Of a stretch of 64,000 bases of DNA, positions 1,075-48,893 are shown in pieces; position 1 is the stretch's first letter; the number at the start of each line of letters is the position of its first letter. The stretch comes from Lama guanicoe (Eukaryota), in NCBI GenBank assembly GCA_013239625.1, contig MU053185.1, positions 1 to 64,000 of the forward strand, read 5' to 3'. Below the pieces are notes generated by a model, which saw nothing but the letters and a program-made list of their open reading frames with translations, was not told where the DNA came from and made no database searches. The translations under genes were made by a program, and so were the position numbers.

Positions 1075-4000
1075 GGTCAATGTTGATTTGTTTTGGTATA
1101 CTTTTGTGGACTATAACATTGTGTAATATTCATATGTACAGTGTGTTGATTTAATACACATATGTTGTGAAGTGATTATCACCAAAGCCTTAGCTGAAAC
1201 CTCCATCACCTCACATAACTACCATTTCTTTTTGGTGATGAGGAGATATTTAATATTTACAATCTTAGCAACAATCAAGTATATAATACAATATTATTAA
1301 CTGTAATGACCATGCTGTACATTAAAGTCATAAAATTTGTACCTTTTGATCAACATCTCCCCCTTTTCCCCACCTCCCAGCCTCTGGTAACCACCATTCT
1401 ACTGTTTCTATGAGTTTCACTTTTTTAGATTCCACATGTAAATGATAGAATACAGTATTTGCCTGACTTATTTTACTTAGCATTATACCCTCAAAGTTCA
1501 TCCAAGTTGTTACAAGTGGAAGTATTTTCTTCTTTCTCATGGCTGAATAATATTCCATTGTATGTGGAGTGTGTGTGTGTGTGTGTATTTATACACATAC
1601 ACACACCACAGCTTCTTTATCTGTTGATCCATTGATATACACTTAGGTTATTTCCATATGTGGGCTATTATGAATACTGTTGCATTGACCATGGAGATGC
1701 AGATGTATCTCTGAAATCCTGTTTTCATTTCTTTTGAATAAATACCAGAAAGGAGGGATTGCTGGATCATATGGTAGTTCTACTTTTAATTTTTTAAGGA
1801 ATGTCCAGACTGGTTCTTATACTGGCTGTATCAGTTTTCAGTCTCACCAAGAGTACACAAGGGTTCCCTTTTCTCCATATCCTCACCAACACTTGTTATC
1901 TTTTTTCTTTTTCATGATAGCCATTGTAATAGATGTGAGCTACATCTCATTGTGGTTTCAATTTGCATTTCCTGGTTAATTAGTGGTGTTGAGCACTTTT
2001 TTGTATACCTGTTGGTCACTGGTATGTCTTCTTTGGAAAAGTGTCTATTCAGTTTCTGACCGTTCTTAAATTAGATTAATTTTTTTTTTGCTGTTGAGTT
2101 GTGTGAGTTCTTTATATGTTTAGAATATTGACCCCTTATCACATACATGATCTCCCTGTTTTGCTGATTGTTTCCTTTGCTGTACAGAAGTTTTTTAGTT
2201 TGATGTTGTCCCACTTATTTATTTTTGCTTTTGTTGCTTGTGCTTTTGATGTCATATCCACAAAATTGTTGCCAGGACCAATGTCAAAGAGATTTTTCCC
2301 TATGCTACCTTCTAGCAGTTTTGTGGCTTCAGATCTTATATTTAAGCCTTTAATCCTTTTTGAGTTAATTTTTGAGGGGTGTCAGATAGGAGTCCCAGTT
2401 TCATTCTTTTGTATGTGGTTATCCAGTCTTTCCAAAACCGTTTAACAGAGAGACTATCCTTTCTTCATTGAATAGTGTTGGCTCCTTTGTCAAATATTAG
2501 TTGGTCATATATTCATGGGTTTATTTCTGAGCTCTTGATGATGTTCCATTGGACTATGTCTGTTTTCTTCTGCCAGTACCATACTGTTTTGATTACTATA
2601 GCTTTTTATTATAGTTCAAAATCAGGAAGTATGATGCCTCCAGCTTTGTTCTTATTTCTCAGGATTGCTCTGGCTATTTGAAGTCTTTTGTGCCTCCATA
2701 GGAATTTCAGGTTTTTCTATTTTTGTTTAAAGAAATGCCATTGGAATTTTGATAGTAGTTGCACTGAATCTATAGATGGCTTTGGGTAGTGTGGACATCT
2801 TAACCATATCAGTTCTTCTGATCAGTGAACACATTATATCTTTCATTTTATTGGGTCTTCCATTTTTTTCCATCAGTCTTAAAATTTTCAGTATACAGAT
2901 CTTTCACCTCCTTGGTTCAATTTAGTCTTCATTATTTTGTTGCTTTTTGATGTTATTTTGAACAAGATTGTTCTCTTTCCTTTTCAGATGTCCTGCAACT
3001 TTTCTGAATTTCTTGACTAGTTCTAACAGTCTTTTGATGGAGTCTTTAGGACTTTCTATATTATAAAATCATATAACCTGCAAATACAGTTTGACTTCTT
3101 CCTTTCCAATATGGAGACCTTTAATTTCTTGCCTGATTGCTCTGGTTGGGACTTCCAATACTATGTTGAGTAGAAGTGGTGAGAGTGGGATTCTTTTTTT
3201 TTTTTTAACATTTTTATTGATTTATAATCATTTTACAATGTGTCAAATTCCAGTGTTCAGCACAATTTTTCAGTCATTCATGGACATATACACACTCATT
3301 GTCACATTTTTTTCTCTGTGAGCTATCATAACATTTTGTGTGTATTTCCCTGTGCTATACAGTGTAATCTTGTTTATCTATTCTACAATTTTGAAATCCC
3401 AGTCTATCCCTTCCCACCCTCCACCCCCCTGGTAAAGACAAGTCTGTATTCTCTGTTTGTGAGTCTATTTCTGTCCTGTATTTATGCTTTGTTTTTGTTT
3501 GTTGTTTTTGTTTTTGTTTTTTAGATTCCACATATGAGCGATCTCATGGTATTTTTCTTTCTCTTTCTGGCTTACTTCACTTAGAATGACATTCTCCAGG
3601 AGCATCCATGTTGCTGCAAATGGCATTATGTTGTCGGTTTTTATGGCTGAGTAGTATTCCATTGTATAAATATACCACCTCTTCTTTATCCAGTCACCTG
3701 TTGATGGACATTTAGGCTGTTTCCATGTTTTGGCTATTGTAAATAGTGCTGCTATGAACATTGGGGTGCAGGTGTCATCCTGAAGTAGGGTTCCTTCTGG
3801 ATACAAGCCCAGGAGTGGGATTCCTGGGTCATATGGTAAGTCTATTCCTAGTCTTTTGAGCAATCTCCACACTGTTTTCCATAGTGGCTGCACCAAACTG
3901 CATTCCCACCAGCAGTGTAGGAGGGTTCCCCTTTCTCCACAGCCTCCCCAGCATTTGTCATTTGTGGATTTTTGAATGATGGCCATTCTGACTGGTGTGA

Positions 4001-32399: not shown

Positions 32400-35300
32400 G
32401 ACACCTCCTTTAAGGTTTTCAACATTTGAGAGGAAATACTGAGGGCTAAATAGGAAAAAGGAATAAGAAAAGACAAAAGGCTAGCCAGATATATGGTCAC
32501 CACCATTGCTAATTCTGTGCCAGGACCAGAGAAGTGACTCCAGAAATAATCTAAAGCCCATCAATCCTTTTATCACTCCCCAAACCTCCCCTACTTATTT
32601 TAAGAGATCTGCTATGTAGTCAAAAAAAAAAAAAAATCTGATCCTAAGGGAACAAAGTCATTCTAGGAGGAACTTGCCTTTGAGATGCAAATATTCTGCC
32701 TGGTCTTCTCCCTTATATCGCCATCTGTTTAAAATGCAAATTTTGAGAAAGGGGGCGAGGCACAGCCAACAAAAAGCTGTCTTGCCCTTGGGGATTGTAA
32801 CAAAGTTTAATTATTACAAAACCACTATAGGTTGGTTTCTAAAGCTCAGTAATCTAAATGCATTTCATGATCTAACACAGTTAAATTAATCCAATTGTTA
32901 GGTTTCTGGTCAACTACCTACATCCAGTACTTCTGGGTTACCTTGGTGGATTTCTCCCCAAGGGTCTAATCCGTAGGCACTTGGAAATTTATTCTAGAAA
33001 AAAGAATTTATAGTTTTGTTCTGGCCCCTAGTATTACTAAGTGGGATTCCCTCACCTGGCCAATTAATATCTGCTCTAATCCTGGCCATAAATATGAATT
33101 TTCTATTAAAGCTAGTCAAGCTCCATCAGACTAACAAGTAGCAACTTGAAGCACTTAACCAGATATATAGTTCCATAGGAGATTTGTAATTATACTAGTG
33201 TAATCCTACACATGGGAAGAAGCAACATGAGGTGGTCAAGACTTTTCGCTACTGTTAATAAGGCCTAGTCCAGTAATAGCACACTGAGCGGCCTGTCAGT
33301 GAGATCCTCGCCTGACCTAGGAATGATCCTAGCACTGTGGGACACAATGATCATGAAATGCCTCCCAAGCCACGGTCGAATTTATCATCATGAGGGCACC
33401 TTCCATCTGCCTCTACAAGGATTAAGTCGCAAGCCACTGAAGTCGCTGACCTGCATCACACCCTGTCAGGCTCAGGGTGGAAATCAGGAATGAGGCCCTC
33501 TGTGCTCTGGGAAAACTGCCAAAATAGGTCTTCAGATAATTAGATATTTTCAGGAGATTTTATGAACCCAAATTCTTTCATTTCCTCATATCTAGAACAG
33601 CACTAAGATCATTAATGGTGACATCTACTTTGGCCATTAAAGAAAGCTGTCTTACAAAACCACATGGCTCTTAATATTCCACCTAAGGGTGCCCATTCAC
33701 AGTAATATGTACTGAGTGCTGTACTTTTACCCCCAGTGAGTCAGCTATGTCAATGCTTATAGAAAAGTAGTCACCGAACAGGTCTCTGACATGTTCTCCA
33801 GTGCCTTTTCCTAGATCTCTGAAGGGATAAGGTCTTTCTTTTCAGACATTCTCAAATTTCTTGTTTTTACTGGGTTTAGCTACTTATCTTAGTACCCTCC
33901 TACTTCTTTTTTTTTTCCAGTTTCATTAGGTAGAATTAATACAGTTTGACTGTATATATACATTATATTGTATGTTAATACATATATACAATATGCTGCA
34001 CATATTTTTTAGTTTACATATATGTACTAATCATTGTTTCTAAGAACAGGTTAGAGCTTTAGCTTTTTAAACTTACATAGTTATCAGAGGAATAAAGCCA
34101 ATCACAAAATAAGAATCAACAGAATGGTTATTCACCTACTTTTGTGTTGTGATGTTCTTAGGTTATATTGTATGAGAAAATGTTATTACTATAGATGTTC
34201 TAGAAATTATATAAAGTCCCTAAATACCTGGTATGTCTGAAACGTTACCAGTCATAATTCTGGTTATTGTAACCAGATTTCTTTATCAATTACAGTGTAA
34301 CTGTTAGAGCAAGCAGATAGCTAGATATGAGTAGAGAAAAGGGGACACAGACCAAATGGCAGGAATTGGGCAGAAAGGAGGGGCACAGACCAAATGCAGG
34401 AAACCATACATCATGTAAGCACCAGGGGTCCCTGGGCAGAGAAAGAAAAGCAGGAACCTCTGGGCTGATAAGTGGTCACACCTTTTGGGGTGATGAGTGG
34501 CCTGGAGACCCACAAAGAAAGGTGAGAAAAGGAAGGAGTTTCCAGGGTCCGAATGTAACCTTTTGCTTATTATGCCCTCATTTCAATAAAATTAGCCTTG
34601 CAGATTAGAAGTACCCATCATGCACTGATGCCATGACACTTCTGATCCAGACTAAATAAGGACAAAAATCCCTCCTCCCTTTGGGAAGGTGGAGTTGGGA
34701 TGATAATCAGGGAATATGACCCCAAACCCTTTCCTCCCTGGTCAATATTCCGCCCATTCATTTTCACACCCTATGTAACTCACGTGACAAAGAAACACAG
34801 GGCAGCCGCTCACCTGAGCCTGCATGCTGTCCCCTTGAGAGTGTACTATCCATCCTTTAATAAATTCTCACTTTACTTTTTTAACCACTACGTCTTGTGT
34901 CTGATTCTTTCTGGGACGGGACAAGAACGTGAAACACCGGTTGCATCCACCGGCAACATAACTAGGTGTTTAGCCATGCTTTAAGCCTTTTGTCATTTAT
35001 AGACAGTTACTGTTTTACTCTGATGCCTTTGCAAAATGCTTTCTCTTCAAGGAGATTTACTGGTTTCTCATAAGTTTCAGATTATAGCACTGAACTGGGC
35101 AAGAAATTTGAAGTCTGATGGAGACTCTGATTTCATAAAACTGTTAACAACAACCAAAAAAGGATTAGTTCCATGAGACTGAGTAAACTGATGAATACAG
35201 TTATAATTTTGATTTTGTCTGAAATATTATTGGCTTTTAGTCTGTTTCCCAGATATAAAGAAACCCTTCTCCTTGAGCTAATTATGACTCAGCAATTTGA

Positions 35301-36907: not shown

Positions 36908-37321
36908 TGTGAAGGAAAAGCCGGGCTGGTCTAACAAGATAACTCACAAATCTAAGTATGGGGATACTGATCTGAGTTCTGCTAGACTAACTCATAAATC
37001 TAAGTTAGTGTTGGTTTGCTGTTCATGTTTTTTTGCTAGCCAGCTGGATTTTCAAAGAGACATATCTGGCTTTGGAATGTTGGTTTGCTGCCTCCCTGCC
37101 TCCACTTTTGTGATAATGACTTTGCTAAAGCTGTTCCATGCCTATTGGCCGAATACCCCAAGCTTGTACTTTACCCTATAAAACCTCATGCGCACGTCTT
37201 GGAGGTGCTCAGAGCTTTGGAGCAGAAGCCCCTCTGAGCCCGCCGGCGTAATACATCTGAGTACTCCAACCCTCCGAGTGGTGCTTGTTTCTTGACTGGC
37301 CTGTCGTTTCCGTAACATTTC

Positions 37322-37339
37322 TGGAGGCCCCAGCGAGAT
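37322..37339 (+). promoter_or_regulatory. PBS tRNA-Thr(UGU)
   Basis: tggaggccccagcgagat, complementary to the recalled 3' 18 nt of tRNA-Thr(UGU). Confidence 0.85.
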
Positions 37340-38743
37340 ACAACCAGGCCGGCCCCTTGAGCCGCTGGACTGGTGGCTCCGGCCAACCAGGGGACAGGAT
37401 TCCGGCAGCGAACGGGGTGGCACCGCCCGACAGTATTCCGGGTTCTCCTTCGTGATGGCAACTCGGCCCCCCGGGTGGCTGGGCTACAACCAGAGCCAGA
37501 CTCCACGGAGGGACAGACAGACTCACCAGGTGGCTGTCCGGACAAGGTAGGAACCCCCGGGAGGAATCAGGTCCTGTCCCATTGGACAGAAGAGGAGGCT
37601 GATCCCCTCCTACAGGCTCTCCGTCTGATGGTATTTCAGACGGGGAAATCAGGTCAGGAATCAGGTCCCGTCCCAGTGGACAGAAGAGGAGGCGGATCCC
37701 CTCCTACAGGAAACAGGATATTGGTATTGGTGGGAGGACTGTTGTTAACCTCTGTGTATGTGTGTGTGTGTGTGTGAGTGAATGAGCGGCCTGTGAAGCA
37801 TGCGATCAGGCTCGAGTTTGTAGCTCCACGGCGTTCTGCTACGGAGTTCGAGTGAGTCCCAACCTGCGGTTCCGTGGTGACCTCATACGGCTCAGGGCGG
37901 TATCAGTCCCTCAGGGTCCCGATCGGAGTCAGCGGCTTATACTGACCCGCCAAAGCTAAGAGGCACCTTCGTCCCCGCGAGGGGAGCGGCCAGGCGGACG
38001 CAACGAAAACCCTCCCTTGTCTTGTCTGCGACACCGGCACAGGGTGGCTACACTGGGAGGGAAAAGGACATAGCCAATGAGTCAACGCCCCTGTGCCCTT
38101 GGAGGCTAGGATGCTATTTCTTTGAGAAAGTCTCCTACCTGACTCTGTCACAGAACACCCGAGACTTATTGTTCCCCTACTGAACTGACCCAAGTAGTGC
38201 CCCTTTTGCCTAGCCCCAGACACCCAGGACGTAAGTTTAGAAGACGAATTCCTTCAGGACCGGGCTTGCCCAGCCCTGGAGGTCCCTTTTCTAGTCCATT
38301 TGTTTTGCCATCTGCCGTCAGTCCCAGCAAAAGAGCAGTCTCTCTGGGAACTCCGGTGTTTTGAGGAGTGAAGAAGGAAAAGATATAAAGGCTACCTTCC
38401 CAAACATCTAGAGCAACAGATATGTTATCCTTAAACATCTAAAAAGAATGGGAGGCTCTAAGTCAAAACCCACCACTCTAGACTGCATGATTAAGAATTT
38501 CAAAACGGGGTTCTCAGGACACTATGGAATTCGAATGACCCCTGGCAGGCTCCGCACTTTGTGTGAGCTTGAATGGCCGGCCTTTGGAGTCGGGTGGCCC
38601 TCAGGAGGAACTCTGGACCTAGCAACAGTGCGAGCAGTCTATCAAATAATCACTGGAACCCCAGGCCACCCAGATCAATTCCCTTACATTGACTCCTGGC
38701 TGAATATCGCCCAGACTCTACCCCCATGGATTCGGTTTTGCTC

Positions 38744-39327
38744 NNNNNNNNNNNNNNNNNNNNNNNNNNNNNNNNNNNNNNNNNNNNNNNNNNNNNNNNN
38801 NNNNNNNNNNNNNNNNNNNNNNNNNNNNNNNNNNNNNNNNNNNNNNNNNNNNNNNNNNNNNNNNNNNNNNNNNNNNNNNNNNNNNNNNNNNNNNNNNNNN
38901 NNNNNNNNNNNNNNNNNNNNNNNNNNNNNNNNNNNNNNNNNNNNNNNNNNNNNNNNNNNNNNNNNNNNNNNNNNNNNNNNNNNNNNNNNNNNNNNNNNNN
39001 NNNNNNNNNNNNNNNNNNNNNNNNNNNNNNNNNNNNNNNNNNNNNNNNNNNNNNNNNNNNNNNNNNNNNNNNNNNNNNNNNNNNNNNNNNNNNNNNNNNN
39101 NNNNNNNNNNNNNNNNNNNNNNNNNNNNNNNNNNNNNNNNNNNNNNNNNNNNNNNNNNNNNNNNNNNNNNNNNNNNNNNNNNNNNNNNNNNNNNNNNNNN
39201 NNNNNNNNNNNNNNNNNNNNNNNNNNNNNNNNNNNNNNNNNNNNNNNNNNNNNNNNNNNNNNNNNNNNNNNNNNNNNNNNNNNNNNNNNNNNNNNNNNNN
39301 NNNNNNNNNNNNNNNNNNNNNNNNNNN
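38744..39327. other. Assembly gap (584 N)
   Basis: Run of n. Confidence 1.
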
Positions 39328-39343
39328 TCCTTCCTACTCTGAA

Positions 39344-39810
39344 AAACTGCAGGCATTTCAATCACATTATGGTCTAAACAAAATTAAGAAGAAGAGCTTC
39401 CACAATAATAGCAGATAAAGAGCCACTGGTAAACCTGTCAGGATTTTTGGCCTGCCCTCCAAAGAAAAGGAGTGAAAAGTGTCAGAGTGGGCCATGGAAG
39501 ACGTCAAGGGGAGCCACGCCAAGCAGCGGCGGATGGAACAGCAACCACTGCCACCTGGCAACAGCCGCAGCAGCAGCACCCCCAGCCCCGGCACCGCCTC
39601 CACCTGGGCCATCGCCGCCTCCACCTGGGCCACCGCCACCTCCATGGCAACTGTCGGGGAGCACCGGCCCCTGCCCAGTCCTGAAATGATGCTGGGATAG
39701 TAATAGGGCTCTGTCGCAGAGACATGCGAATATTTGGTCCCTGTCCAGCCCACAATGATTTCCACTTGGTGGTATGTGACGACTGTAATCAGGCTGTCAA
39801 GCCACAGGCT
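39344..39810 (+). pseudogene. ATXN7: Intronless, circularly permuted ATXN7 (ataxin-7) 5' fragment inside gag
   Basis: Encodes KLQAFQSHY, then ~98 nt of non-coding sequence, then SE.A.EDV.GEPR, QQPQQQHP, ASTWA..AMATVGEHRPLPSPEMMLG, GLCRRDMRIFGPCPAHNDFHLVVCDDCNQAVKPQA; these match the recalled ataxin-7 N-terminus. Confidence 0.93.
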
Positions 39811-40689
39811 ATGATTGACCTCTTAGAGTCTATCTTCCATTCTCACCGGCCCACCTGGGAAGATGCCCGCCAGCTGCTTCTGACTCTTTTCAATACAGAG
39901 GAGAGGAGACGCATTCTCACTGAAGCACGAAAATGGCCACAGGGCCTAGCCCCTGGGGACACAATGGATGTTGAGGGGTGGGCCATGACACATGCCCCTG
40001 ACACCAGACCAGATTGGGACTTTAACACCCAAGAAGGAAGAGAAGCACTGTGTGAGTACCGGGAGGCCATCCTACAAGGGCTAAGAGCGGGAGCCAAGAA
40101 GCCAACTAACATGTCTAAAACGACCACGGTGACCCAGAAGCCAGACGAGACCCTCACTGACTTCTATGAGAGACTATGTGAAGCATTCCGAGTCTACACT
40201 CCTTTTGATGCTGAGGCCCAAGAAAACCAGCGGATGGTCAACGCTGCCTTCGTAGCGCAATCATACCCAGATACACGCCGGAAACTCCAAAAACTGGATG
40301 GATTCACAGTGATGAACGCTACACAGCTGCTGGAAGTAGCAAACAAAGTTTTTGTAAACCGAGAACGGGAAGCCCAACGAGAAGCAGACCAGCGAATGAA
40401 GCAGAAAGCCGCATTCCTTGCAGCAGCCCTGGGGAAAACAAGCTTCTGCCAGAATCCTGCACCACCCGGAAGAGGGGACCCCAACCATGGATGCCCCTGG
40501 GCCGAGACCAGTGCGCATACTGCCGGGAGACAGGGCACTGGAAAAACGAGTGCCCAAACAGAAAGGATGGAAAGAGAGCACCCCCAAAAGGCCTACTTAT
40601 CAGCTGGAGCCACCAGCCAGTAATCACATCGGACTGGCTGGGGTCGACTCAGAACAGGAGAGACCACGCTCCCTGCCCCTGGGCCCCGG

Positions 40690-42230
40690 GAAGCCCAAGG
40701 TCAAGATATTTATAGGGGGCCAACCAATGACTTTTATGGTAGACACAGGAGCAAAGTATTCTGTGGTGACCCAACCTGTAGCCCCCCCCCCCCGACCAAG
40801 AAAAAGGCGACTATTATAGGGGCTACTGGGGACTCAACTGCCCGCCATTTCTGCCAGCCACGATCCTGTCGAGTAGGAGGCCATCTAGTGACACATGCCA
40901 TTATTCACTGTAAGGGACACCAAAAAGGAAATGACCCTGTGAGCCAGGGGAACAGGCTGGCTGATCAAAGGCAAGAGGCAGCTGCCTGGGAACACTCAGT
41001 AATTAAAGTTATGGCAGCACCAGAGCTACCCACTGCCCCCAGAATATAGCCACGATGAAAACAAGTGGGCACAGGCCGAACAGGGAAAGAAAGGAAAGGA
41101 TGGATGGTGGATCATGACGGATGGGAGGGTTTTCATCCCAGAACGACTAGCTTATCATCTAGTCCAACAACAACACAAAGCCACACACATGGGAAAAACG
41201 GCTTTGGAGGCCCTCTTAAAGCGATATTTCTTAATTTCTCATCTCCCTACTCTGTGCGCATCAGTCTCCCAACACTGCTTGCTCTGTGCACAAAACAATC
41301 CAAAACAAGGGCTCACTGGGCCAATGGGAATACAACGATGCGGATTGGCTCCCTTCAAAGATTTAGAAGTGGACTTTACTGAACTTGGGCCCAGTAAGGG
41401 ATAAAAGTACCTGCTGGTTTTCGTCTGCACCTTCACAGGGTGGGTAGAAGCCTACCGCACCAGGACAGAGAAAGCAAGAGAGGTAGCAAAGGCTCTCCTC
41501 AGGGATGTTATCCCTCGATTTGGAATGCCTACCTCCGTCAGGTCTGACAATGGACCCACCTTCATGGCAGAAATTGTACAGCAAGTGGCAAAGGCACTGA
41601 GCATCCCCCGGAACCTGCACACAGCATACCAGCCTCAAAGCTCAGGGAAGGTAAAACGAATGAACAGAACTCTAAAACAAATGATAGCTAAAATCAGCCA
41701 AGAAACCCAGCTCCCCTGGGTGGACATTTTACCCCTGGCTCTGTTGTGAATAAGATGCACCCCAAGATTTAATATTGGGTACTCTCCCTTTGAAATCCTC
41801 TATGGGCGACCGCCACCTTTAGTCAAGATGGGAAATCCCACCCCAGAAATAGGAAATTTAGGGCTCCAACAAAAACTGTTGGGACTAGGACAAGTACTAT
41901 GAGAAGTTTGGGGTTGGGTGATAAACCCCCATTTCATTAGGGGTCCAAATGCATCCCCATAAACCAGGTAACCAGGTATGGGTGAAGGACTGGAAAAAGG
42001 AACCTCTGAAACCAACATGGAAGGGACCATATTTAGTGGTATTAACTACCCCTACAGCTGTTAAAGTTGCAGGAATCATCCCTCGGGTCCACCACTCCAG
42101 GGTTAAGAGAGCGACTTCACGTCAGACAGAGGGTCCCTGGAAAATTTAGAGGGTCCCAGGAGACCCGCTCAAGATCAAGATCAAGAGGGACCAGAAAAGG
42201 ATCTACGAGCCCTGCTCTAGCCACACCCGG
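40690..42230 (+). pseudogene. pol: Provirus B pro plus RNase H tail plus integrase; RT deleted near 40897
   Basis: FMVDTGAKYSVV; jump to IIHCKGHQKG; HHCC (HKATHMG...CLLCAQ), EVDFTE, SDNGP, WKGPY motifs. Confidence 0.92.
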
Positions 42231-43150
42231 AAGCTGGCTAGTCAACACACGGCCGAAGCTTGAGGAAAGCTCAACGCAGCTGTTAAATGTATTTCTTTTG
42301 TGCTCCCTTGCCTCTTTCCTTGTTTACTATACTAGTCTGCATATTAGCAGTGGCGCTAGCTAGGGCCACCCCACCTGACTGGAACATAGGCCATAGAATC
42401 CTGATAGCTATTTTTTATCTTGTTATAATTAGTGCCATTGTGAAGGAAAAGCCAGGCTGGTCTAACAAGATAACTCAAGTCTAGGAATGTGAAGGAGAGG
42501 CTGGGCTGGTCTAACAAGATAACTCACAAATCTAAGTATTGGAATACTGATCTGAGTTCTGCTAGACTAACTTGTAAATCTAGGTTAATTAGTGTTGATT
42601 TGCTGCTCATGTTTTTTGCTAGCCAGCTGGGTTTTCAAAGAGACATATCTGGCTTTGGAATGTTGGTTTGCTGCCTCCCCACCTCCACTTTTGTGATGAT
42701 GCTGCTGCTAAAGCTGTTCCATGCCTATTGGCCGAATACCCCAAGCTTGTACTTTACCCTATAAAACCTCACACGCACGTCTTGGAGGTGCTCAGAGCTT
42801 CGGAGCAGAAGCCCCTCTGAGCCCGCCGGCGTAATACATCTGAGTACTCCAACCCTCCAAGTGGTGCTTATTTCTTGGCTGGCCTGTCGTTTCCATTACA
42901 ATAGTGCAAGTCTAGACATGGGAGGAGCAACAAGAGGGAATATTTTCCTGGATCATGATAGATGAGTAAGACAGGAGATCCAGAGAATTTTTGAGTATCA
43001 ATAGGGCCTAATCCCTGTTAACACCTTTGAGTAGCAGGTCAACAAAATCTTCCCGCGATCTAGGAATGAGCCTTCCTAGCACCATGGGACAAAATTGGTC
43101 ATGAAATGTCTCCCAAAATATTGGTTGAATTTAGGACCAAGGGGGAGCAC

Positions 43151-44361: not shown

Positions 44362-47300
44362 ATTGGTTCCTATCAGGGAAATGTATGTGGGGGCTCATCT
44401 CAGGCCCAGCTGAGTGACCCCAGGCATTTCTATTCAATTGCATTGCTACTGATAGGCTGAGAACAGCACAAAACAATTGGCCTAGCTGACAGGACTGCAT
44501 GATGGCCTTTGCAATTAATCAAGGGAACACCCTTTAGCTGTAACTGGCTTGCTCGCTGACTAACCCAGATGGGTGACACCATCTGGGAACAGAACACTGC
44601 TTGCTGGAGGGCGGTCATGCTGCTGCGTGCTTTCCCATATTGCCTCTGTCGTGTGCTGCCTGTGGTACCCACCCCAAAATGTCACTGCTGCCATAATAAT
44701 TCAATGATCTCCCCAGAGCAGTGAGATCAAGGCCATATGGTCTAATGAGGCAATTAGATCACTAATTAAAAAGGCTTTAATTGGCTGTTAATGTACATGA
44801 GGGTCCCACACACCTCCTGCTATGCAAAGTTGGCATGATCCAATGGCTCTGTCATTTCTATGACCATAGTGACCCAAATGATCCCCTGAATTGCCAACCC
44901 TGGATTTGCCCCATTTGACCCTAAGTCCAGATCGTATTCTTTTTACTAATTCCAGGGCAGTGCTACTGCATTTTGGAGACATTCCTGAAACTATCAGGCA
45001 CTGGAGGGCACTGACATGGTTGCTAGACATAGACACTGCCGCCCAGATGCCCCAATACTTCAGACTTGTCGCCTTCTGTCCCCACTGCCCCAGAAAGGTC
45101 TCCCACAAACAAATTTTCCTCAATGGAAAGGGTTTCCCACTCCCTCCCTAATAAACCCCTGATGTAATTTTGCCCCTTATGGTACTGGGAGTTACGGAAA
45201 CTTAGGGTTTTTGGCCAATCTCTGGATAGCGAGTCTCTAAACTCCAGGCCCTGAAACTAACATTCTCCCAGCTATAGCATTCTTCTGCTGTCCAGCCTCT
45301 TGCCACACCCCTCTAGCCCCAAGCCAATCCCCACTATTCCCTCTACCCCTTCCCTAACCTCTAGTACTGGCAGCCTACTTAAGCTCCTACCCTAGGAAAT
45401 CAACAGTTCCCTGTGCTGGGCCCACCTCCCAGAGTCAATCAACCCTATACCACTCTGGTGGTCCATTAGTACAATAAAAAGACACAGTCCTTTTTGGCCC
45501 TACTAGACATGGGGACCCAAGCCACTCATTCCAAGCAATCCTTCTAAATCTCAAAAAAAGATGCCCTTCTACCTACAAGGCATTGCCAGTAAAACAATCA
45601 AAGGTGTACAAATCCACCTGGATATCCCTAACAGGACCATTCACTTCAAATGGCTTCCTTTGGTGGTGGCCACCAGCTTGTTCTTTCATATTATAGGTGT
45701 GGATGCACTGACATGATGCCATGCCCATGGAAAAAGCCCAAGTTCTTGGCCTTCTTGGTGGGACTGACCAAATGGATGTCAGTGACTCTTCCCTCCTGGT
45801 CGAGACAGTAAACACTACCCAATATCGATGTAAACACAGCAGGGAGGGCCTACACCCTGTCATGTAAGATACACTTCAGCCCGGAGTCAGGAAGCCACAA
45901 TCTCCCCTTTCAATAGCCCCATTTGGCCGATATCTAGACCAGCCACCAACGAATGGCACCTCACCATTGACTATCAAGACCTCAGTTCTCAGGTTCCCTA
46001 TTAAGGCTTCAATTCCTAATAATACAGAACTGAGTGAGGACATATAATCGGCCCAAGGAGTGTCCTTTGTTGACCCACTAACCTGTTCTATTCTGTTCCC
46101 ATCTCAGAGGAGTCTCAGGCTCAATTTTCTTTCACTTTTGAAAGGAGTGAATATACATTTATGTGGTTCCCAATGGGATATTTAAACAGCCCTGCAATCA
46201 CACATAATCTCTGCCACCAAAATGTTAATACCTTACACTTGGAAAGGTGTCATTTTGGGCATTATATTGACGACACTATGTTCAGGTGTCCTTCTGAGAA
46301 AACAGGACGAGCAGATTTTGCCCCCCTCACACACCACCTACACCAGTGTGGCTGGGCAATCGCCCCTCACAAGATCCAAGGCCCTGCCTCATCTGTCAAA
46401 TTTCTGGGTGTCTAGTCCCCCAAGGACTGAGAAATTTCCCCAACAATAATTACTCACCATTAAATCACCCACGACACTCAGACAAGCACAACACATATTA
46501 GGCCTTTTCATGTGCGGGAGGCAACACATCACATCTCAATGTTTTTTCGTCCTATGTACACAATCACATACAAGTCGGCCACTTTCCATTGGGGTGAAGC
46601 CCAACAGTGTGCTTTGACAGCTTTCCAGCAGAAAGGCCACAAAACTTTACCTTTAGTCCCCAACTGGCTCCATAGTCCATGTCAAGTCATTGGCCACACC
46701 TGACTAACCCTCCTGGAGTCTCAGGAGCAAACAGGAGACTACCTGGCTTCCCATGGGGTTTGGGATCCCTGGCAGCAGACACATATACTCCCCTTAAACA
46801 CCAGCTTTTGGCATCCTTTTTGGGCTCTTTTAGGAACTGAATCCCTAAGCAGGCCCCACCTGGTACTACTCTAAATACAAGTTCCCATGATGCCCTGTGT
46901 TAGAGATGTCTTTCAAGAGAAAAGCTCAGCACAGCCACCAATGCCTCCTTAGTGACATGGAAATGGTACCTTCAGGAGAGAGCTAAACGTGACGTCAAAG
47001 GCCTTCCAAATTATAGGAGGATGTGGCTTCCCCGATGCTCAGCCCCTTGCCGGACAGCCTCAAGGAACAGCAGCACCCCCTCCCATTCTCCTCCTGTGGC
47101 TCCTTGGGGAGCCCGTGGGGAGCAACTGTCTGGACCTGTAGCTGTTCACCTAGCCCTTAAGGAGGCCATAAAAAGGGCCTTTCACAGATCCCTATTTTCA
47201 CAGACTCCTGGACTGTTGCTAACAGCCTTGCAGTTTGGTCTGGCCAATGGCTCAGGGACAGTTTTCTCATACAAGGCAAGTCCACCTGGGGCTCCTAGAT

Positions 47301-48224: not shown

Positions 48225-48893
48225 TGTTAGAGCAGATAGCTAGATATGAGCAGAGAAAGGGGGACACAGACCAAATGGCAGGAATTGGGCAGAAAGGAGG
48301 GGCACGGGCCAAATGCAGGAAACCACACATCATGTAAGCACCAGGGGTCCCTGCGCAGAGAAAGAAAAACAGGAACCTCTGGGCTGATAAGTGGTCACAC
48401 CTTTTGGGGTGATGAGTGCCCTGGAGACCCACAAAGAAAGGTGGGAAAAGGCAGGAATTTCCAGTGTCCGAATGTAACCTTTTGCTCATTATGTCCTCAT
48501 CTCAATAAAATTAGCCTTGCCGATTAGAAGCACTCATCATGCACTGATGCCATGACACTTCTGATCCAGACAAATAAGGACAAAAAATAAGGACAAAAAT
48601 CCCTCCTCCCTTTGGGAAGGTGGAGTTGGGATAAAAATCAGGCAATACAGTCCCAAACTCTTCCCTTCCCAGTGAATATTCTGTCCATTCATTTTTACAC
48701 CGTATGTAACCAACTTGCCAAAAAACTCAGGGCAGCAGCTCAGTTGAGCCTGCCAGCTCTCCCCTTGAGAGTGTACTATCCATCCCTTAATAAATCCTCA
48801 CTTTACTTTCTTAACCTCTGCATCTCATCTCTGAATTCTTTCTGGGACAGAACAAGAACCTGGAACAATGGTTACAACTACTGACAACATCTT

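Follow-up and report, generated by a model that had tools for sequence, protein, structure and literature searches.

How can exons of a host gene come to lie inside a retroviral gag gene in an order in which the gene itself does not carry them? This question is raised by a stretch of 64,000 nucleotides from the guanaco, Lama guanicoe (assembly GCA_013239625.1, contig MU053185.1, positions 1 to 64,000 of the forward strand), which we refer to as the window and in which the capsid (CA) part of the gag gene of an endogenous retrovirus is interrupted by a rearranged piece of ATXN7, the gene for ataxin-7. An initial annotation, made from the letters of the window, had explained the interruption as the capture of a host circular RNA (circRNA). 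Our analysis supports this interpretation. We consider it likely that the insert is one lap of a circle of ATXN7 exons 2 to 5, circATXN7(2,3,4,5), reverse-transcribed from a co-packaged circle by way of a single microhomology in gag, and that the chimera was then carried in many germline copies.

An ATXN7 insert with permuted exons

Positions 39329-39355 of the window translate as PSYSEKLQA and lead from gag into a stretch that it shares with ATXN7, and gag picks up again at 39811 with MIDLLESIFHSH, after a segment that ends in ...CNQAVKPQA. Measured between the two copies of the K-(L/P)-Q-A stretch, the insert amounts to 455 nt. It contains no introns and its parts follow each other in a permuted order: the last 16 nt of exon 5, a block of 98 nt, exon 3, the tail of exon 4 and finally the start of exon 5. 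The order was read from a tblastn comparison in which the query was a 244-residue N-terminal fragment of ataxin-7 taken from a representative protein library (P0001). Residues 150-158 of this fragment (KPQAFQSHY) fall on 39344-39370, residues 1-84 on 39479-39697 and residues 117-153 on 39700-39810, and it is from these positions along the window that the permutation follows. Residues 150-158 also show that FQSHY stands directly after KPQA in ataxin-7, as the initial annotation had stated. In addition, 39700-39810 matches residues 125-161 of the ataxin-7 chain 7ktr_N in the PDB (E 3.8e-15). The claimed interruption of gag CA at PSYSEK(L/P)QA by about 455 nt of permuted, intronless ATXN7 is thus borne out by the reading of the sequence, by tblastn and by the PDB match. 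On these matches the assignment of the insert to ATXN7 can be taken as secure, far beyond chance.

Only exons of the circle are represented in the insert, with nothing past exon 5 and nothing upstream of the block. The insert ends without a run of A residues and has no poly(A) tail. Its length (455 = 3 x 151 + 2) shifts the gag frame, and a stop codon is reached 20 codons past the 5' junction, inside the block. With its gag frame broken in this way the chimera was defective, and a fusion of Gag with ataxin-7 is not to be expected. Most likely the insert was simply carried along passively by the element; as a bolder possibility, it or the truncated Gag to which it gives rise may have favoured the spread of the defective lineage or its interference with relatives.

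Splice boundaries and the 98-nt block

To place the limits of exon 5 we relied on a protein-pattern scan of metagenome contigs, which returned two vertebrate ATXN7 loci (L001 and L002) among 63 pattern matches. L001 at 3002-3106 and L002 at about 2236-2340 hold vertebrate ATXN7 exon 5 with its introns, that is, host DNA in metagenome assemblies, and the boundaries of the exon are identical in these tetrapod-like and fish-like sequences. In both loci the exon starts after ag with A(T/C) ATG CC., ends with CAT/CAC TAT G and is followed by gtaagt; in L001 it is 105 nt long, which equals the sum of the exon-5 parts within the insert (16, 12 and 77 nt). Two spurious open reading frames (ORFs) of genomic contigs, P0003 and P0059, leave ataxin-7 exactly before DM and after HY, and both go on with G-K past HY, as G|GTAAR would read. 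Because the donor of L001 and L002 and the divergence of P0003 and P0059 fall at this point, 39371 is the last base of exon 5 and hence the exon-5 splice donor, in agreement with the donor of an exon ending TAT G that had been proposed at this position. The upstream side of the non-colinear junction accordingly lies at the exact 3' end of a downstream exon.

The boundaries of exons 3 and 4 were placed with primers for human circATXN7(3,4) that cross its back-splice from exon 4 to exon 3 and read ..GGCTCTGTCGGGAAG joined to GAGCGGAAAG (PMC13313202). The same back-splice primers place the end of exon 4 at ..TGTCGGGAAG, with ..GTCGGGAAG on the exon-4 side followed by GAGCGGAAAG (PMC13313202). The exon-3 side primer maps to 39470-39479, where the window has the letters gagtgaaaag, and the end of exon 4 is found as ggctctgtcgcagag at 39707-39721. 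Taken alone, the exon-3 10-mer is not significant (51 matches against 36 expected); it is located 9 nt ahead of the position of residue 1. For exon 4, the ORFs P0142 and P0144 depart from ataxin-7 after KDG and thereby show where exon 3 ends. The published circle lengths (405 - 336) leave 69 nt for this exon, and 69 nt is the distance in P0001 between the KDG point and the primer-defined end of exon 4. Thus 39470 is the first base of exon 3 and 39721/39722 the spliced joint of exons 4 and 5, so that three boundaries of the insert (39371, 39470 and 39721/39722) stand at canonical splice sites. The exon called the start-codon exon in the initial annotation keeps its start at 39470, but the atg at 39494 is not the native ATXN7 start codon, whose position (39479-39481) reads gtg here.

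The block between exon 5 and exon 3 (39372-39469) has stop codons in all three frames and is non-coding, as had been stated. On its left it directly adjoins the exon-5 donor and on its right the exon-3 acceptor, each edge falling exactly at a canonical site. A linear ATXN7 mRNA copied with three or more template switches could have left such a block if it were the 5' end of a transcript starting upstream of exon 3, and the block does end in AG right before exon 3, like the tail of an intron. The human sequence at this place is available from a genotyping primer for spinocerebellar ataxia type 7 used on blood DNA, which reads ..TGTTACATTGTAG before GAGCGGAA, its intron side ending in ..CATTGTAG ahead of GAGCGGAA (PMC4733707). 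The window has ..ctccaaagaaaag (..caaagaaaag) before exon 3 and agrees with the human intron-2 tail in 4 of 13 letters, AG included. This difference argues that the joint between the block and exon 3 is a splice junction and not the edge of a retained intron. Moreover, the purine-rich ..aaagaaaag is a poor acceptor context, and random switching would have put the left edge of the block at the exact exon-5 donor only by coincidence, which together make a linear mRNA with multiple switches most unlikely. On its left side the block starts with GTCTAA, as against the GTAAGT with which the intron after exon 5 starts in L001 and L002 and the G-K-Y.. of the mammal-like P0003.

The reading that fits the block best is that of an exon in its own right, joined by splicing to exon 5 on one side and to exon 3 on the other. 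Because the exon that is spliced to exon 3 in the linear gene is exon 2, we infer that the block is the 5' untranslated region (UTR) exon 2 of ATXN7, which would make 39371/39372 a back-splice junction. Nine human circles with CAG in ATXN7 are catalogued, and the catalogue includes circATXN7(2,3,4,5).1 (hsa-ATXN7_0005, hsa_circ_0002634) as well as (2,3).1 and (2,3,4,5,6).1, in a numbering that also names the circle (3,4) of the exon-3 primers (PMC13313202). A circle closed from exon 5 to exon 2 is consequently a known human RNA, and the back-splice that the initial annotation had postulated has a catalogued counterpart. Another ATXN7 circle, hsa_circ_0066436, was set aside since it is made of exons 9-11. 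A literature search by the identifier hsa_circ_0002634 found no paper, and the contig survey described below (runs X1, X6, X13 and X16) contained no read of the native back-splice. Comparison of the block with the rest of the window and with L001 and L002 gave chance-level matches only, with no second copy in the window. A 22-nt pattern of the block had 0 matches in metagenome, genome and viral contigs, collections nearly without vertebrate DNA and therefore uninformative; a second 22-nt pattern had 0 in the genome contigs and a 24-nt pattern across 39371/39372 had 0 in the viral contigs, two collections with very little vertebrate DNA. For the ORF over the block and exon 3, residues 1-45 had no homologue in the protein search, and a homologue search with a 42-residue query gave no candidate sharing three words.

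Shared stretch, related copies and the template

Contigs from three DNA runs, representing three organisms (X1, X6 and X13), and from one RNA library (X16) were aligned to the window at a likeness of at least 85%; the results are drawn from the 32 of 327 pieces listed. Insert-bearing contigs of all four runs bridge the joints 39355/39356, 39371/39372 and 39469/39470 and show about 7-12% divergence from the window. Records 1, 9 and 25 show 12 differences over 135 nt and carry 49 more upstream gag letters, records 3 and 27 show 10 differences, record 10 shows 18 over 158 nt, and record 26 shows 23 over 186 nt and runs into a CAG run longer than that of the window. Record 17 from the RNA library, a kind of library in which DNA is possible, also bears the insert (18 differences over 251 nt). 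Records 4, 11 and 28, with 1-3 differences, represent the window's own locus. Several diverged paralogous copies with the same junctions are thus present in three organisms, which indicates one capture followed by multiplication of the chimera.

At the window locus only 28 assembled bases lie between the insert and a gap of 584 N, and a 5' junction so close to a gap at a contig end might reflect faulty assembly. The same junctions, with substitutions of their own, are however found in independent contigs of the three organisms and in the RNA library. The gag-ATXN7 junction described in the initial annotation is therefore present in independent sequence, and an assembly artefact, ruled out for the insert family, has next to no probability. 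Paralogous contigs of the other runs extend 34-96 letters further upstream into gag, and the upstream gag of contigs from other runs translates by hand as ..LLNWRHHT.

The full lap of the circle that had been proposed does not hold as such, since about 94 nt across the exon 3/4 junction, the closing part of exon 3 together with the greater part of exon 4, are gone and the Gln/Pro-rich part of ATXN7 is shortened. Other copies share this deletion: their loose ends at 39697 and 39706 read ..GGGACAGCCTT(C/G)GGGCTCTGT, and the deletion joint shows in them an overlap of TG(G). Skipping of exon 4 was considered as the source of the loss and discarded, given that this exon measures 69 nt and that the deletion has one end within exon 3 and the other within exon 4. 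In the window, five of the eight letters at 39698-39705 differ from the other copies and create three consecutive stop codons in the exon-3 frame. The proline-rich part of exon 3 contains a 21-nt tandem repeat (39594-39644, 2.4 copies); an X1 contig of the window locus has one extra unit, so that one and the same locus has different repeat numbers in different organisms. In a contig of X16, 39345 is followed by 8 other letters and then by 39558, three more joints inside exon 3, each in a single contig of a DNA run, skip 92-157 nt, and two contigs have unrelated sequence before 39781. Several derivatives with deletions seem to exist within the insert family.

Gag and ATXN7 exon 5 have in common an 11-nt stretch, AA(A/G)CCNCAGGC, which encodes K-P-Q-A and stands at both junctions, so that microsimilarity is found at both fusion points. 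The gag-side copy (39799-39809) agrees with L001 exon 5, which reads aaa cca cag gca over the stretch, at 10 of 11 positions, including an unbroken run of 8. At the 5' junction gag runs to ..GAA, and the shared stretch is followed by A TTT CAA, which is of the exon-5 type as in L001; at the 3' junction exon 5 runs to ..GCT GTC, and the shared stretch is followed by T ATG ATT of gag. An insert flanked by direct repeats might also be a LINE-1 retrocopy in gag, the 11-12-nt copies then being a target-site duplication. We rejected this origin, whose probability is practically nil, because the repeat encodes exactly the KPQA that ataxin-7 has between ..NQAV and FQSHY.., because its 5' copy has the exon-5 type letters of L001 and because the insert has no A-tail.

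Copies of gag without the insert provide the empty site. Loose ends before 39799 in X1, X6 and X16 read ..CCTTCCTACTCTGAA and then follow the window from 39799. These insert-free copies, seen as loose ends in three of the four runs, join ..TCTGAA straight to 39799 and onward, and joints 39351>39808 and 39354>39812, which skip 456 and 457 nt, occur in X13 and X1. Since the insert-free copies join both gag flanks, no gag base was lost; gag is unchanged outside the insert and no internal sequence of the element has been replaced, as would be predicted for a circular template. The stretch common to both junctions, the preservation of gag, the internal deletion and the multicopy nature of the chimera had not been part of the initial annotation.

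The following course of events would account for this architecture. A gammaretrovirus-like element would have co-packaged a host circRNA of ATXN7 exons 2-3-4-5, with exon 5 back-spliced to exon 2. The polymerase copying gag CA would have reached the 11-nt stretch common to ATXN7 exon 5 and switched onto the circle; having copied it once round it would have been back at the same stretch and rejoined gag at the nucleotide position where it had left it. The product would be gag with a 455-nt insertion between two copies of the shared stretch and without any loss of gag. This defective chimera would then have integrated and multiplied, presumably with the proteins of intact relatives. A circular template predicts exit and re-entry at the same site, because after one lap the cDNA again ends in the sequence of the first switch. 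That a circRNA template was copied by a retroviral reverse transcriptase we hold to be highly probable. We further infer a circular template in place of one with repeated exons, switches that took place during reverse transcription and a spread of the chimera by complementation.

Two other routes would give much the same product. A linear ATXN7 transcript with repeated exons (..3-4-5-2-3-4-5..), produced by trans-splicing or from a duplicated gene, would yield identical DNA if it were entered at KPQA of the second exon 5 and left at KPQA of the first, and Dong et al. have warned that non-colinear junctions can arise in other ways (PMC4897178). We saw no evidence of such a transcript, whereas human catalogues list circles of the same exons and a circle accounts for the same-site re-entry without calling on a rare RNA species; the repeated-exon template is accordingly quite improbable. 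Under the other possibility the circRNA was first turned into a double-stranded circular cDNA, which then recombined at the shared stretch with proviral or pre-integration DNA, either by a single crossover or by microhomology joining. When a circle recombines with a linear molecule through one crossover, the outcome is likewise an insertion flanked by the shared stretch, without loss. For recombination, however, 8-11 bp is very short, while template switching at such microsimilarities is a documented route in LTR (long terminal repeat) elements (PMC5131818), and we regard recombination of a circular cDNA as very unlikely. It would in any case still start from a circRNA.

Several points weigh against the capture of one lap of an RNA circle by template switching. 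The deletion of about 94 nt makes the lap incomplete, and to reconcile this with one full lap, a slip or a second event has to be assumed. Judged by sequence alone, a circle and a linear exon-repetition (trans-spliced) transcript look inseparable. The block was assigned to exon 2 by its position. Its first two bases are GT, and formally it may be a retained piece of intron 5 in the guanaco; the comparison of intron-5 starts covers one mammal-like ORF and two non-mammalian contigs, and that of the intron-2 tail covers human sequence only. The third-codon letters of the shared stretch (39801 and 39804) vary among copies, A at 39801 accounting for 75.1 of 263.5 depth units in X1, 63.8 of 125 in X6 and 208.3 of 309.6 in X13, where summed contig depth is not copy number. 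As a result of this variation neither the exact switch points nor the strand of synthesis is readable, and the idea that the third letters are a sign of donor-type copying in minus-strand synthesis was dropped. Finally, 39810/39811 is bridged by 31 letters on each side in 0 of the 32 pieces listed, three of which reach 16-21 letters beyond it.

The provirus and its relation to known systems

The ATXN7 copy is internal to an element that has both LTRs together with gag and integrase sequence (Table 1). The LTR pair is 93.2% identical over 409 aligned positions, and ATAG stands on both outer edges of the provirus as a 4-bp target-site duplication. Duplications of 4 bp are typical of gammaretroviruses. 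With Gag_MA (p15), Gag_p30, integrase and this duplication, the provirus is a gammaretrovirus-like (class I) endogenous retrovirus, and its CA portion matches solved gammaretroviral capsid structures (E 6.5e-41). The ORFs scanned between gag and integrase had no match to Pfam protease or reverse transcriptase; the integrase zinc finger almost adjoins gag (40624-41003), and the provirus seems to have lost its protease and reverse-transcriptase region. Right after the 5' LTR (37312-37335), TTT is followed by an 18-nt stretch that resembles a primer-binding site, perhaps of the tRNA-Gln type. A 39-nt partial duplicate of the LTR start (42439-42477; 97% identical to 36908-36946) lies directly 5' of the 3' LTR. 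A second pair of direct repeats (34312-34904 and 48231-48834; 95%, 84% and 85% identical in three segments), spaced by about 13.9 kb, brackets the entire provirus, and a separate reverse-transcriptase fragment (Pfam RVT_1) is present at 46074-46415. From its surroundings, the provirus with the ATXN7 insert seems to lie within an LTR element of greater age. The LTR divergence of about 7% suggests that the provirus arose on the order of ten million years ago or earlier.

Table 1. Features of the provirus and of its ATXN7 insert (positions in the window)
Feature	Position	Strand	Remarks
5' LTR	36908..37311	+	ATAG just before; edges determined
gag matrix (MA)	38412..38743	+	Pfam Gag_MA, E 1.7e-16; ends at assembly gap
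Assembly gap, 584 N	38744..39327	.	conceals remaining MA, p12 and early CA
gag CA (PSYSE) immediately before insert	39328..39343	+	sequence reading
Shared stretch, copy 1, aaa ctg cag gca (K-L-Q-A)	39344..39355	+	5' switch zone
ATXN7 exon 5, last 16 nt, ttt caa tca cat tat g	39356..39371	+	FQSHY + G
Non-coding block, 98 nt	39372..39469	+	from exon-5 donor to exon-3 acceptor; read as exon 2 by position
ATXN7 exon 3	39470..39697	+	9 nt of 5' UTR, start-codon position, shortened Gln/Pro-rich part, to ..PSPEMMLG
Internal-deletion scar	39698..39705	+	frame change; residues 88-116 absent
ATXN7 exon 4, last 16 nt	39706..39721	+	primer match at 39707-39721
ATXN7 exon 5, first 77 nt	39722..39798	+	DMRIFG...CNQAV; tblastn, PDB match
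Shared stretch, copy 2, aag cca cag gct (K-P-Q-A)	39799..39810	+	3' switch zone
Remaining gag CA and downstream gag	39811..40623	+	Pfam Gag_p30, E 1.4e-47, from profile position 16
Integrase remnants (zinc finger, core)	41003..41749	+	Pfam zf-H2C2, Integrase_H2C2, rve
3' LTR	42488..42898	+	ATAG just after

The shared stretch, the gag left unaltered around the insert, the LTRs, the target duplication and the empty sites together point to a reverse transcriptase that switched onto a packaged circle. If this is true, retroviral template switching would be a general route to circRNA-derived pseudogenes, and the exon 5 to exon 2 back-splice of ATXN7 would be at least as old as the provirus. The insert would then be an indirect record of a back-splice in a disease gene that is older than the divergence of the organisms sharing the copies. 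The architecture also offers a signature that can be searched for in other genomes, namely a single lap that lies inside a retroelement between two copies of a microhomology. Among the matches listed in our literature search, which left supplements and subscription journals outside, there was no report of ATXN7 in a retroviral gag, the one listed item that names ATXN7 being a congress abstract book; nor did the matches listed include a report of the retroviral capture of a circRNA with its back-splice in gag, and the term was absent from the matches listed when circRFWD2 was searched for together with LTR template switching.

Acutely transforming retroviruses are defective, helper-dependent recombinants with host exons within gag, captured from linear read-through transcripts with the exon order kept. 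The guanaco insert differs from such oncogene transduction in that the exon order is permuted and that there is no sign of a selected protein, the gag frame stopping in the block.

Within ATXN7 itself, the closest counterpart is human circATXN7(2,3,4,5).1, which has by position the same exon set and the same exon 5 to exon 2 back-splice; it is an entry of a human RNA catalogue, and its likeness to the guanaco insert is judged by position (PMC13313202). The first step of the proposed course, packaging, is supplied by a recent report that host circRNAs are packaged in particles of human immunodeficiency virus type 1 (HIV-1) and, more efficiently, of murine leukaemia virus (MLV), with which our finding ties in; that work concerns packaging only, in cell culture (bioRxiv 10.64898/2026.01.21.700838).

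Retrocopies that arise inside LTR elements by microsimilarity-dependent template switching (Tan et al. 2016, PMC5131818) resemble the insert in that a copy of host RNA lies in an LTR element, that both fusions show microsimilarity and that the chimera is non-autonomous. Those retrocopies derive from linear mRNA, are colinear and replace part of the element's ORFs, and that article makes no mention of circular RNA, with 0 occurrences. In contrast, the guanaco insert is permuted, exit and re-entry share one gag position and no gag was lost.

Finally, 33 pseudogene copies derived from circRFWD2 are described in the mouse, with few terminal A residues and LTR-enriched flanks, and their mechanism was called 'mysterious' (Dong et al. 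2016, PMC4897178), whereas the guanaco event is readable from one locus and its relatives. Like these circRNA-derived pseudogenes, the insert is intronless, has a non-colinear junction, lacks poly(A), exists in many copies and is associated with LTRs. The link to LTRs of the mouse copies is an enrichment in their flanks only, while the guanaco copy is inside gag of an element with both LTRs and a target duplication; its junctions are resolved to an 11-nt stretch and empty-site copies are at hand, in another gene and another host order. In all, the guanaco case combines a circRNA-derived pseudogene with LTR-mediated retroposition and adds to both a resolved architecture.

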